A DNA stretch of 64,000 nucleotides from a virus (Duplodnaviria > Caudoviricetes), in IMG/VR virus record IMGVR_UViG_3300022752_000014, one strand, 5' to 3'. Numbering within the stretch: position 1 is the first letter of the stretch; every line of letters starts with the position of its first letter. A model generated the notes under the pieces. It saw only the letters and a program-made list of their open reading frames with translations. It was not told the DNA's origin and did no database searches. The position numbers and the translations under genes were made by a program. Of this stretch, positions 19,919-23,840 are shown piece after piece.

Positions 19919-19992
<74 letters not shown>

Positions 19993-19996
19993 CCTT

Positions 19997-20078
19997 GTCG
20001 ATGTGGCGGAATTGGTAGACGCGCTGGGTTTAGGTTCCAGTAGATTAATCTGTGAAGGTTCAAGTCCTTTCATCGACA
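19997..20078 (+). tRNA. tRNA-Leu(UAG)
   Basis: CTGGG-TTTAGGT-TCCAG; long variable arm. Confidence 0.92.
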
Positions 20079-20079
20079 C

Positions 20080-20112
20080 TTGACAATCATACTCAACTAC
20101 TCTATGATTGTC
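20080..20112 (+). promoter_or_regulatory. Sigma70-type promoter spanned by a 10-bp inverted repeat
   Basis: TTGACA-17-TATGAT; GACAATCATA...TATGATTGTC. Confidence 0.7.
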
Positions 20113-20118
20113 TTATAA

Positions 20119-20189
20119 GCGGGTATGGTGTAGCGGTAACACGCCATCCTTCCAAGTTGGAATCACCGGTTCGAACCCGGTTACCCGCT
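20119..20189 (+). tRNA. tRNA-Gly(UCC)
   Basis: CCATC-CTTCCAA-GTTGG. Confidence 0.92.
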
Positions 20190-20277
20190 CTTGGTAGTCG
20201 TTAGGCAGATAGCCTAGAAAGACGCCAATGGGAGAAGTGATCCTGCGGGTTCGCCCAAGAGCTCTCCTTCTCCTCAT

Positions 20278-20349
20278 TCCTCCTTGGCGCAGCGGTAGCG
20301 CAGATGACTGTTAATCATTTGGTCCCTGGTTCGAATCCAGGAGGGGGAG
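20278..20349 (+). tRNA. tRNA-Asn(GUU)
   Basis: GATGA-CTGTTAA-TCATT. Confidence 0.93.
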
Positions 20350-20480
20350 TTGGAAGTACTTCGGTTCTTCCAACTATGTTCTGGGTGGAATTCCCAGCGG
20401 TTTCGTTAGAGACTGTCCTTTGTAGGTTCGATGCCTACATCTTCCTTATGGGAGATAAGAGTGGCTACTGGAAACATAAC
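20350..20480 (+). ncRNA. tRNA-like multi-hairpin element of unknown class
   Basis: T-arm-like GTAGG-TTCGATG-CCTAC plus several other stems. Confidence 0.4.
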
Positions 20481-20482
20481 AC

Positions 20483-20554
20483 GGGCGATTAGCGCAGCGG
20501 TAGCGCAGTTGCTTTACACGCAATTGGTCGGCGGTTCGAATCCGTCATCGCCCA
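20483..20554 (+). tRNA. tRNA-Val(UAC)
   Basis: GTTGC-TTTACAC-GCAAT. Confidence 0.95.
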
Positions 20555-20582
20555 CTTGATAAATATTTAAAAAAAGAGTATA

Positions 20583-21284: not shown

Positions 21285-21295
21285 ACCTCCCCACT

Positions 21296-21380
21296 GGAAA
21301 GGTGGTCGAGTGGTTGAAGGCTCTAGTCTTGAAAACTAGCGATGTGAAAGCATCCGTGGGTTCGAATCCCACCCTTTCCG
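21296..21380 (+). tRNA. tRNA-Ser(UGA)
   Basis: CTAGT-CTTGAAA-ACTAG; long variable arm. Confidence 0.95.
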
Positions 21381-21494
21381 TTTCAATAAGTTACAAATTT
21401 AACAATTGCTTAATAAGTGTTACGTAACGAACACAAAAGATTGACTGTGAAAGTCTTGTGGATAGTATATAGTAGTATCACAAGTATTAAACCT

Positions 21495-21644
21495 ATGGAT
21501 CAACACACCTATGAAAACTGGGTGAAGATCAAGGAAACTTTTGAAGCTTCTGGCAACACCGACAACATGTTTTATTATAGATCTTGCGAAATTGTAAAAA
21601 CTAAAAAAGATCCTCTTGCAAAATTTCTTGGAGACGAGAAATGA
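21495..21644 (+). CDS. Hypothetical protein (49 aa)
   Basis: MDQHTYENWVKIKETFE... Confidence 0.6.
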   Translation: MDQHTYENWVKIKETFEASGNTDNMFYYRSCEIVKTKKDPLAKFLGDEK

Positions 21645-21844
21645 TGCACGAACAAGAAGAATTAGTTACACGTTCTGAAGTTCAGGAGATGATTGATGCT
21701 GCTATACGAAGGCACAATCGGAATGCTTCCATTATTAGTATGTGCGTTGGGTGGGTGGTTCTTGCTTTATTTGCTGAAGGACTGCTAAGACTGATTGGGG
21801 TTATTCCGCCAGTTCTACCATGGCTCAAGATTACTCTCCACTAA
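21641..21844 (+). CDS. Small membrane protein
   Basis: IISMCVGWVVLALFAEGLLRLIGVIPP. Confidence 0.65.
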   Translation: MMHEQEELVTRSEVQEMIDAAIRRHNRNASIISMCVGWVVLALFAEGLLRLIGVIPPVLPWLKITLH

Positions 21845-22131
21845 TATTTTTAGTTCCTTGGTTTGTACTTGTGGGTATTGCACTTTCAATGATTGTGCAA
21901 GGTTGGATGATTATGAATGCTCAACACGGGTATTCTAAGAGTCCAAAAGTAAAACATCCAGAGTTAAACGACGTTAAAGCAGGAGACCCGTTACTAGTGG
22001 TTAGATTTACAGACGAAGACATCGAACAACTTCAAAGAAGAGTTTTACAACAGAAGATAGACGAATTATTCGAAGAACCCTCTAGTTACGAGGACGACGA
22101 TGATGACGATGGAATGGCAGGAGTTAATTGA
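21820..22131 (+). CDS. Membrane protein, DUF2973-like
   Basis: N-terminal TM, KHPEL...LLVVRF. Confidence 0.55.
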   Translation: MAQDYSPLIFLVPWFVLVGIALSMIVQGWMIMNAQHGYSKSPKVKHPELNDVKAGDPLLVVRFTDEDIEQLQRRVLQQKIDELFEEPSSYEDDDDDDGMAGVN

Positions 22132-22222
22132 ATTCCTTACAAAACAAATCTTGATTTTTATCGTGTTTATGTGTGGACTTATTGTTGGTTATGTTTATGG
22201 ACTACGAGAAGGAGGACAATGA
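22109..22222 (+). CDS. Single-TM micro-protein (37 aa)
   Basis: MEWQELIEFLTKQILIFIVFMCGLIVGYVYGLREGGQ*. Confidence 0.55.
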   Translation: MEWQELIEFLTKQILIFIVFMCGLIVGYVYGLREGGQ

Positions 22223-22311
22223 ACAAAAATTTACTGTTCAATGCATTAACTGTAATTGGTGCAATTGGATGCTTTGTTATATGGGGTTTAAATAACGCTT
22301 ATCCACAATGA
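22219..22311 (+). CDS. Single-TM micro-protein (30 aa), NdhQ-like C-terminus
   Basis: MNKNLLFNALTVIGAIGCFVIWGLNNAYPQ*; GGAGG SD; ATGA overlaps at both ends. Confidence 0.55.
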   Translation: MNKNLLFNALTVIGAIGCFVIWGLNNAYPQ

Positions 22312-22808
22312 AAAAACTCAACGATACAATTCTAACAGTCACGATTGCAATCATTGACTTTCTGTATCGTGACTTACCCATTCAAAGATTCTGGGTTCTA
22401 GAGACTATTGCCAGAGCACCTTACTTTGCCTTTTTAAGTGTGTTGCATCTGAGAGAGTCTCTTGGATTGCGAACAGATTCACACTACTATTTGATGAAAG
22501 AACACTTTGCACAAACCGTCAATGAAACAGAACACCTTATCGAAATGGAATCGCGTGGTGGGAGTAACCGTTGGATTGACCGCTTTTTCGCTTATCATTT
22601 GGTTATCATCTATTATTGGATTCTGGTGGTTTATTATTCTATTGCTCCCATCTCTGCTTATCATCTAAACACGGGTATTGAGTATCACGCCACAGAAACT
22701 TATCTCTCATACCTCTGGGAGCATCCAGAAGACACAAAGATCGCTGAGATTGCGGTTGATGAAATGAATCACTATATTGAACTTACAAGAGCAATGGAGA
22801 TGATTTGA
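22308..22808 (+). CDS. ptoX: Plastoquinol terminal oxidase
   Basis: RFWVLETIARAPYFAFLSVLH, ETEH, EYHATETY, DEMNH di-iron ligands. Confidence 0.95.
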   Translation: MKKLNDTILTVTIAIIDFLYRDLPIQRFWVLETIARAPYFAFLSVLHLRESLGLRTDSHYYLMKEHFAQTVNETEHLIEMESRGGSNRWIDRFFAYHLVIIYYWILVVYYSIAPISAYHLNTGIEYHATETYLSYLWEHPEDTKIAEIAVDEMNHYIELTRAMEMI

Positions 22809-22930
22809 TGTTATTAGCAAAAGCACTTTTATTTGTTTCAATTCCTTTCGTTTTAGCAACACTCTATTTCGGAACAAAAGGAGGGTATTATGACTCCAAA
22901 GATTATAAGGGAAACGGAACCGCACATTAG
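22808..22930 (+). CDS. ndhP: NdhP-like small subunit of photosynthetic complex I (NDH-1L), 40 aa
   Basis: MLLAKALLFVSIPFVLATLYFGTKGGYYDSKDYKGNGTAH*; TM + FGT.x.G.YD...Y.GNG.AH signature. Confidence 0.82.
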   Translation: MLLAKALLFVSIPFVLATLYFGTKGGYYDSKDYKGNGTAH

Positions 22931-23108
22931 GCAAAGATACCACTTTGCGACAACTGCATTTGTAAGAATGTGGGGGCACAGTTCACTACACGATCATAAG
23001 ATTGTAGACTTTTGTATTGAATGGGCACATAAAGAAGAGAATGCTCCACTTGACAACACAGTTGATCAATATTTTTATTATGAATTTAAGACTTGGAGGG
23101 GATATTGA
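22890..23108 (+). CDS. Hypothetical protein
   Basis: 72 aa; overlaps the ndhP-like ORF in another frame. Confidence 0.6.
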   Translation: MTPKIIRETEPHIRQRYHFATTAFVRMWGHSSLHDHKIVDFCIEWAHKEENAPLDNTVDQYFYYEFKTWRGY

Positions 23109-23260
23109 TGGGACACTTTGCAAGATGGGTATTAGAAAATCCATATACTCTGGGTATTATTGGATATCTGTTAATTGTTGTACCTATTATGGGTATCTGG
23201 GCAATTCATAAGTATGGTTGGCAGCACTGGGCTCCATTTGACAAGGGGCACAAGGAGTAG
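23108..23260 (+). CDS. Single-TM micro-protein (50 aa)
   Basis: MGHFARWVLENPYTLGIIGYLLIVVPIMGIWAIHKYGWQHWAPFDKGHKE*. Confidence 0.6.
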   Translation: MGHFARWVLENPYTLGIIGYLLIVVPIMGIWAIHKYGWQHWAPFDKGHKE

Positions 23261-23266
23261 TATAAT
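23238..23266 (+). promoter_or_regulatory. Sigma70-type promoter
   Basis: TTGACA-17-TATAAT. Confidence 0.8.
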
Positions 23267-23300
23267 TAGTTCTGTTGAGAGGCAAGACCACTCAACGCAA

Positions 23301-23374
23301 CGGGGTGTAGCGCAGCTTGGTAGCGCATCTGCTTTGGGAGCAGAGGGTCGCAGGTTCGAATCCTGTCACCCCGA
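23301..23374 (+). tRNA. tRNA-Pro(UGG)
   Basis: TCTGC-TTTGGGA-GCAGA; C1:G72. Confidence 0.95.
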
Positions 23375-23392
23375 CTCATAAAACTTTACATT

Positions 23393-23632
23393 ATGAAAAT
23401 GTACAAAGACCTTAACGAACTCGAATCATTTACGGTTGAACAGTTTCAGGTAGATTTTGATACTCTGATAGAAAGAGTTGAAAATGGAGAATCATTTATC
23501 ATAACAGATGGGGAAAGGAACGCGGTAATAGTTCCTTATAACGAAACTATTAAGTTTGCAGTAGAATCAACAGAATCAATTGTGGATGACGAAATGATAC
23601 GTCTTCACACTGATCACGAAGAGGGATCGTAA
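23393..23632 (+). CDS. Phd/YefM-like small protein
   Basis: FDTLIERVENGESFIITDGERNAVIVP. Confidence 0.6.
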   Translation: MKMYKDLNELESFTVEQFQVDFDTLIERVENGESFIITDGERNAVIVPYNETIKFAVESTESIVDDEMIRLHTDHEEGS

Positions 23633-23639
23633 ACTAACT

Positions 23640-23711
23640 GGGGGTGTCGCATAAAGGTCAATGCGCTCTGCTTATAACGGAGTCATCCTGGTTCAAGTCC
23701 AGGCATCCCTA
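23640..23711 (+). tRNA. tRNA-Ile(UAU)
   Basis: CTCTG-CTTATAA-CGGAG; T-arm CCTGG-TTCAAGT-CCAGG. Confidence 0.85.
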
Positions 23712-23766
23712 TGGAGGTTTCGTGCCTGTGAAGAGGAAACTCTGAGGCTGTGTAAATCCTCCTTTT

Positions 23767-23839
23767 GCTCCTTTAGCTATCTGGTGAAAGCACCCGACTC
23801 ATAATCGGATACAGGCGAGTTCGATCCTCGCAGGGAGCA
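23767..23839 (+). tRNA. tRNA with CAU anticodon (Met or Ile2)
   Basis: CCGA-CTCATAA-TCGG; G1:C72, so not a typical initiator. Confidence 0.88.
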
Positions 23840-23840
23840 C

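Follow-up and report, generated by a model that had tools for sequence, protein, structure and literature searches.

A 30-codon gene directly ahead of ptoX in a cyanomyophage encodes a putative minimal homologue of the NDH-1L subunit NdhQ

We describe here a 30-codon gene located immediately upstream of ptoX, the plastoquinol terminal oxidase gene of a cyanophage, whose peptide, judged by its sequence, is a homologue of NdhQ. The window, i.e. the whole 64,000-nt stretch of viral DNA that was analysed, belongs to a T4-like cyanomyophage (Kyanoviridae); its DNA matches Synechococcus phages only, and in public runs near-identical DNA comes from freshwater metagenomes, those of lakes among them, produced by several studies. 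The reading that we prefer, and regard as likely, is that the gene is a phage auxiliary metabolic gene encoding a minimal NdhQ homologue, most likely host-derived, that would act at the NdhQ site and help to keep the NDH-1L complex assembled. The features of the locus to which we refer are the following.

22100..22222, plus strand: ORF of 40 aa with a single helix, coupled to the micro-gene by ATGA; outside the NDH-1 reading, without a PDB match.
22210..22215, plus strand: Shine-Dalgarno-like AGGAGG, 3 nt ahead of the micro-gene ATG, read from the sequence.
22219..22311, plus strand: putative ndhQ-like micro-gene, 30 aa, with one transmembrane helix, a basic N-terminus and the C-terminal end WGLNNAYPQ, as seen in the translation and the family alignment.
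22282..22305, plus strand: codons for the C-terminal motif W-G-L-N-N-A-Y-P (residues 22-29), conserved across the phage family.
22308..22808, plus strand: ptoX, plastoquinol terminal oxidase, 166 aa (Pfam AOX PF01786, E 1e-13; phrog_4235, E 6.5e-79).
22808..22930, plus strand: phage ndhP, 40 aa, whose ATG overlaps the ptoX stop (TGATG); phmmer match to 6KHI_P at E 5.4e-8 with the C-terminus aligned; phrog_2173, E 4.7e-21.

An earlier note on this DNA, made from the letters alone, had translated 22219-22311 as a 30-aa peptide with a Shine-Dalgarno site and ATGA overlaps at both ends, lying directly ahead of ptoX. Our re-translation matches it exactly, and the other elements can be read in the sequence as well. 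Thus, AGGAGG is present at 22210-22215, the ATG at 22219 shares bases with the stop (TGA, 22220-22222) of the 40-aa ORF before it, and the stop TGA of the micro-gene (22309-22311) shares bases with the ptoX ATG at 22308 to give a second ATGA. Several homologues likewise have GGAGG-like purine runs ahead of their ATG.

The micro-gene belongs to a family of single-helix peptides, 26-37 aa long, with the end W-G-L-x-x-A-Y-P; homologous ORFs ending in W-G-x-x-x-A-Y-P are present in 71 other cyanophage loci. A tblastn search with the peptide gave weak matches in 25 phage records, the phages concerned being ACG-2014e/i/j, S-CAM4, S-RIM12, DSL-LC03, Sf-CH3, Sf-FP1 and S-CAM9. Each match corresponds to a small ORF with the end ..WG[LIV][NH]NAYP, and in most of these records it sits in a stretch without any annotated feature; gene callers miss the micro-gene because of its small size. 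A scan of IMG/VR added 66 further loci with 30 distinct peptides of 26-36 aa. Furthermore, when 1.84 billion cluster representatives were searched exhaustively with HMMER, 31 of them matched at E 1e-3 or better; almost all of these are 29-37 aa long, the few longer ones looking like mis-called starts or fusions. Three family members of 74-160 aa (P0262, P0268 and P0273) have the NdhQ-like helix at their very C-terminus and are probably over-extended gene calls rather than real fusions.

In an alignment of 26 phage sequences (A2), residues F19, W22, G23, A27, Y28 and P29 are invariant, and hence the W-x-L-x-x-A-Y pattern, whose conservation among homologs the earlier note had made a test of its reading, is kept. 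Among 35 distinct DNA versions, compared over their last 24 codons, dN/dS has a median of about 0.25, and the near-invariant Gly, like the invariant Ala, Tyr and Pro, is encoded by two to four synonymous codons. The ORF at 22219-22311 is a real protein-coding gene under purifying selection. The 30-aa peptide has no match among the family models of Pfam, PHROG or NCBIfam, none of which holds an NdhQ model, and a feature search of the ESM Atlas with the peptide returned only generic small membrane proteins, all with scores of at most 0.81. When 185,579 species genomes were scanned for the exact phage-type motif, it was absent from cellular genomes except for three Planctomycete stretches, which we take as chance matches inside other genes. 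At the level of transcripts, contigs of two metatranscriptomes (X19, X20) match parts of the operon at 85-99% identity, positions 22190-22299 lying outside them; the two sequencing runs that span 22190-22299 are probably DNA.

The NdhQ-like reading of the earlier note started from a helix given there for NdhQ, which is letter-perfect, being identical to residues 25-44 of chain Q in PDB 6L7O/6NBY. Profile-profile, PDB and six-frame genome searches all support the reading. With hhalign, the 26 phage sequences aligned to 44 cyanobacterial NdhQ (A3, the sequences aligned out of 120 NdhQ proteins collected with one 45-aa query) with a probability of 96.4%, an E-value of 1.1e-9 and a score of 41.6 over 25 columns. 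This score is far above those of all controls against A3: 200 column shuffles of A2 had a mean of 8.9 (sd 2.2, max 15.9), reversed A2 scored 10.2, and five natural single-helix families, namely NdhP and four phage micro-proteins from the neighbourhood, scored at most 10.0, each with a probability below 1%. In the PDB (177,635 sequences), the single peptide gave sub-threshold matches only, the best photosynthetic one being helix V of CP43 at E ~0.5. A 4-sequence profile placed Thermosynechococcus NdhQ first at E 0.19, and the 26-sequence profile placed it first at E 0.019 (6KHI_Q), aligned to the C-terminus.

Six-frame searches of 401 Cyanobacteriota genomes point in the same direction. Most of the matches of the phage profile at E<=0.01 fall on ndhQ genes, and at 28 of the 30 loci inspected the match is an ndhQ gene found independently by the NdhQ profile (e.g. 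in G056, G277, G134, G128 and G041); on the canonical ndhQ of large genomes the phage profile scores more weakly, at E 1.5e-5 to 1e-2. The likeness itself spans only about 25 residues, comprising a hydrophobic helix and a short tail. W, A and Y are invariant in the 44 NdhQ sequences, and the W-[AG]-[LIM]-x-x-A-Y tail and one transmembrane helix are common to them and the phage family. Among the NdhQ tails of 20 cyanobacteria (PMC12038448 supplement), those of S. elongatus (..ILWGLNAAYSF), PCC 7502 (..IWWGLNTAYR) and Trichodesmium (..LFWGLNTAYTVG) have WGL..AY in common with the micro-gene. In tblastn searches of the phages, the Thermosynechococcus NdhQ helix and the short NdhQ of the hosts, both short, low-complexity queries, gave no match, a result that for this reason carries little weight.

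The peptide had been described as lacking the soluble N-terminus of NdhQ, and indeed the canonical motif N-R-G-I-M-K-F-x-G-A-D-S-P is missing from all phage sequences in the alignment. This does not speak against membership of the NdhQ family, because the NdhQ proteins of the hosts themselves are without the motif. Hence, the NRGIMKF block defines a long form of NdhQ and not the whole family, and we file the phage peptide with the short form. Public names are a poor guide to canonical NdhQ as well: in one record a 58-aa, N-terminally extended version from S. elongatus PCC 7942 is called 'PilI type IV pilus biogenesis protein', several others are 'RNA polymerase subunit sigma' in UniRef, and most of the remainder are 'hypothetical protein' (P0276, P0292, P0335, P0375, P0382).

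The short form is found in the clade infected by these phages. A 2025 survey leaves the NdhQ column blank for Synechococcus WH5701 and WH8102 and for Prochlorococcus CCMP1375 (PMC12038448, Supplementary Data 3), which belong to this clade. In our six-frame search of a sample of 401 genomes, the NdhQ profile gave full-length matches (E 1e-19 to 1e-29) in large genomes, and partial matches confined to model positions 14-43 (E 1e-4 to 1e-10) in genomes of 1.7-2.9 Mb. It is on the short ORFs of the latter that the phage profile scores best (E 4e-7 to 2e-5). These ORFs (in G189, G361, G285, G345 and G307, among others; loci L118-L134, L136 and L138) encode 38-45 aa with a short acidic N-terminus and the pattern ..LLGGIG.F[IV].WGL.[NH]AYP. 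WGL..AY is present in all 16 aligned picocyanobacterial short NdhQ sequences, in which W, G, L, A and Y are invariant, and in some of the ORFs remnants (NRG..DSP) of the canonical N-terminal motif survive. In 19 of 19 loci the short gene and ribF are convergent, and since this is also the arrangement of ndhQ in S. elongatus PCC 7942, the short host genes are ndhQ orthologues. The hhalign probability between the host short form and canonical NdhQ is 97.6%. A host-form profile retrieved all 19 host genes (E 1e-17 to 1e-25) and, after them, canonical ndhQ genes only.

The GC content of the short-ndhQ loci is 0.37-0.39 or 0.56-0.70. NdhP in five short-ndhQ genomes carries Prochlorococcus, marine Synechococcus or Cyanobium signatures, and in one is identical to NdhP of Prochlorococcus CCMP1375. 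An exact-sequence look-up showed that a 39-aa protein of this kind is named 'NADH dehydrogenase subunit NdhQ' in GenBank for Synechococcus PROS-9-1, SYN20 and MVIR-18-1; the same short protein is a 'hypothetical protein' in WH 8016, CC9311 and Prochlorococcus SS52/LG. Picocyanobacteria thus do have NdhQ, which corrects the survey for WH8102, WH5701 and CCMP1375. Many Cyanobacteriota genomes of 1.6-2.0 Mb in the sample have neither an NdhQ nor an NdhD1 candidate; these are probably non-photosynthetic lineages of the phylum and are therefore not to be counted as picocyanobacteria without NdhQ. One further observation concerns G307, which has the same short NdhQ as Synechococcus sp. WH 8016. In G307, ndhD1, 3' of ndhF1, is split into overlapping frames of 412 aa and 166 aa (L153 2907-4582), which is a frameshift or sequencing error; four related genomes have an intact ndhD1 of 554-563 aa.

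Compared with this host form, the phage family reaches an hhalign probability of 98.0% (E 1.8e-13). By sequence comparison, then, the closest relatives of the phage peptide are the NdhQ proteins, 38-45 aa long, found in Synechococcus, Cyanobium and Prochlorococcus. The peptide is a further-shortened relative of its hosts' NdhQ, and the phage gene most likely derives from the picocyanobacterial short NdhQ. The phage gene is not convergent with ribF and sits in a phage-specific gene chain, as expected of a captured gene; without the ribF synteny, it is to be seen as a homologue of the short subfamily and not as a positional orthologue.

The genes surrounding the micro-gene were compared across 72 loci. 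The earlier note had supported its reading with an NdhP-like neighbour, and this part stood in an altered form: an NdhP is encoded at 22808-22930, downstream of ptoX, but the adjoining 40-aa ORF upstream of the micro-gene is not one. The NdhP C-terminal pattern FGT(R/K)xG(Y/F)YD..Y.GNG(S/T)AH matches 22808-22930 and has no match in the 30-aa ORF or in the 40-aa ORF, and the latter, having no PDB match, was ruled out as NdhP. Against NdhQ this 40-aa ORF reaches only 0.2% by hhalign; about 16 of the 71 related loci have it ahead of the micro-gene. Co-occurrence of the micro-gene with ndhP and ptoX, both of which are present here, is loose. The ptoX gene adjoins the micro-gene in 3 of the 72 loci, namely this window and two IMG/VR loci, with ptoX-ndhP inserted after the micro-gene, and ndhP lies within 2.5 kb of it in 9 of the 72. 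In five complete or near-complete phage genomes bearing the micro-gene, no ndhP was found at E 0.01 or better. These counts contradict an obligatory co-occurrence. As many phages have the micro-gene without ndhP or an adjacent ptoX, an 'NDH-1L module' is not a fixed unit; the row of ndhQ-like gene, ptoX and ndhP is translationally coupled here and is one arrangement among several.

What is stable across the 72 loci is a chain of small, mostly membrane proteins of 75 aa, 67 aa and 103 aa (DUF2973-like), sometimes the 40-aa ORF, then the micro-gene, followed by proteins of 72 aa and 55 aa; in the group of ACG-2014, S-CAM4 and S-RIM12, petE is followed by the 72-aa gene, the micro-gene and the 55-aa gene. 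In the window, the region 21417-23632 consists of coupled small ORFs of 75, 67, 103, 40 and 30 aa, ptoX, ndhP, and ORFs of 72, 55 and 79 aa, most of them with one predicted helix. The 67-, 103- (weak DUF2973), 72- and 55-aa neighbours, which are kept beside the ndhQ-like gene in most related phages, have no known function. Nine tRNA genes (Arg-TCT, Leu-TAG, Gly-TCC, Asn-GTT, Val-TAC, Ser-TGA, Pro-TGG, Ile-TAT and Met-CAT) flank and interrupt the chain at 19919-20555, 21295-21381 and 23301-23840.

Three other explanations of the micro-gene have to be weighed. That it is a chance ORF in the leader or spacer of the ptoX operon might be thought of, given its mere 30 codons, its lack of any database annotation and the failure of Pfam, PHROG and NCBIfam to match it. 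But frame and peptide are kept across divergent phages at a dN/dS of ~0.25, the start and stop are coupled to the adjacent genes behind a Shine-Dalgarno site, and 31 clusters are found among 1.84 billion proteins, so that this reading is effectively excluded as far as sequence evidence can do so. Another explanation is that the peptide is a conserved thylakoid micro-protein that resembles NdhQ by convergence and serves a different complex, for example by mimicking helix V of CP43 in photosystem II or PetM in cytochrome b6f. CP43 helix V (..FVWFNNTAYP) was the best photosynthetic PDB match of the single sequence, PetM appeared at E 0.51 with the profile, and the stable neighbours are other small membrane proteins without known function rather than ndh genes. 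However, as the profile grew NdhQ rose to first place and CP43 dropped from the list, the phage profile lands on ndhQ genes in the six-frame cyanobacterial searches, and the hhalign probability against host NdhQ is 98%. We consider convergence distinctly improbable, and mimicry of CP43 helix V was dropped, the family profile favouring NdhQ.

The remaining explanation accepts the NdhQ ancestry and changes the role: the truncated peptide could be a decoy or modulator that competes with host NdhQ or sits on other NdhD paralogues, in which case it would destabilise or re-partition NDH-1, for instance between NDH-1L and the CO2-uptake forms. Cyanophages suppress CO2 fixation while electron transport keeps running, which counts in favour of such a role, as do the loss of the host N-terminal segment with its charge reversed and the presence of the micro-gene in many phages without ndhP. 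On the other hand, the helix and C-terminal motif common to all NdhQ proteins are kept almost to the letter, a decoy need not hold the whole docking surface under so strict a selection, and the gene stands here in a row with ndhP, whose product stabilises NDH-1L. An interfering role is therefore an unlikely one in our judgement, and we return to the reading of the peptide as a minimal NdhQ homologue that supports NDH-1L.

NdhP and NdhQ, each with a single helix, sit on opposite faces of NdhD1 and, together with lipids and carotenoids, hold the NdhD1/NdhF1 module on NDH-1M (PMC7021789, PMC11794437). Deletion of either one dissociates about half of NDH-1L, and deletion of both dissociates nearly all of it (PMC7021789, PMC11794437). 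NdhQ touches NdhD1 (PMC11794437, PMC7021789). It is a subunit specific to oxygenic photosynthesis. The binding of the phage peptide to NDH-1L is a candidate function that we infer from these properties and the likeness to NdhQ. When the phage family was folded with Synechococcus NdhD1 (alignment A5), support for binding was weak: the pair scored 0.58, compared with 0.00 for the best of three controls. Of 80 solved complexes, 58 reach the mark, as do 2 of 110 mismatched pairs, and among those passing at 0.60 or less are only 7 of the 80 but both of the mismatches. At least 97% of contacts are common to the runs, with a partner pLDDT of at least 81. Because the NdhQ-NdhD1 complex has already been solved, the score may reflect likeness and not binding.

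By the positive-inside rule, a basic N-terminus faces the cytoplasm. During infection the peptide would enter the thylakoid membrane, its basic N-terminus facing the cytoplasm and its WGLxNAYP end lying on the lumenal side, and would occupy the NdhQ position on host NdhD1, helping to keep NDH-1L together, with the phage NdhP bracing the other side of NdhD1. Upkeep of NDH-1L might sustain cyclic and respiratory flow from ferredoxin to plastoquinone, and hence the ATP supply, as host protein synthesis falls, and the co-encoded PTOX could drain excess plastoquinol and so relieve an over-reduced plastoquinone pool.

Phage-borne ndhP, ndhI and ndhD have been described (PMC10452541, PMC12801897). 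We found no paper on a phage ndhQ, NdhQ and cyanophages occurring together only via the title of a reference, and none that discusses NdhQ in Prochlorococcus. Phage ndhQ would thus be a new addition to a known type of auxiliary metabolic gene, its homologue being a known host protein, and this phage would carry homologues of both small stabilisers of NDH-1L, NdhP and NdhQ. Cyanophage genes for electron transport (psbA, petE, petF, ptoX, ndhP, ndhI and photosystem I genes) shape the behaviour, under infection, of a large share of the primary producers in oceans and lakes. If the reading is correct, a second phage subunit specific to NDH-1L strengthens the view that phages actively maintain the cyclic and respiratory flow that depends on this complex, and the row of ndhQ-like gene, ptoX and ndhP offers a concrete cassette that can be tested as a unit. 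We lean, by a little, towards a broader generalisation: that cyanomyophages of marine and freshwater picocyanobacteria widely encode an unannotated minimal NdhQ of 29-34 aa, also where ndhP is absent (S-CAM4, S-RIM12, ACG-2014e/i/j, S-CAM9), that taking over the accessory shell of NDH-1L is a common strategy, and that a 25-residue helix with WGLxNAYP is the minimal functional NdhQ. The micro-gene also illustrates that genes of about 30 codons escape annotation even in well-studied phage genomes, and the natural truncation series from canonical (45 aa) through host (39 aa) to phage (30 aa) forms maps the indispensable part of NdhQ.

With respect to known systems, there is a local likeness to helix V of CP43 (PsbC), where ..C.FV.W..N.AYP gives 11 identities in 22; the match (E ~0.5) is not significant, fades as the profile grows and involves a segment of a 470-aa protein. 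Cyanophage NdhP (phrog_2173), encoded two genes downstream, is likewise a phage-borne single-helix protein of about 40 aa that is specific to NDH-1L and binds NdhD1, but in sequence it is unrelated to the phage peptide family (hhalign 0.3-0.4%). Canonical NdhQ (Thermosynechococcus chain Q of 6KHI/6L7O/6NBY, Synechocystis Norf6 and Synpcc7942_0491) has in common with the phage peptide a single helix followed by W-[AG]-L-x-x-A-Y, as seen when the S. elongatus tail ..ILWGLNAAYSF is set beside ..VIWGLNNAYPQ of the phage, whereas it has 17 extra N-terminal residues that include the near-invariant D-x-x-R-G-I-M-K-F-x-G-A-D. The short NdhQ of the group of hosts that these phages infect has one helix and the C-terminal F-[IV]-x-W-G-L-x-[NH]-A-Y-P, and it too is without NRGIMKF. 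The phage form differs from it in being about 9 residues shorter, in its basic N-terminus (MNK, MRK) where that of the host is acidic (MDNSGSES), and in the interior of the helix, which reads IFG.I..F in the phage and LLGGIG.F in the host; and whereas the host gene is convergent with ribF, that of the phage lies in a chain of genes for small membrane proteins.
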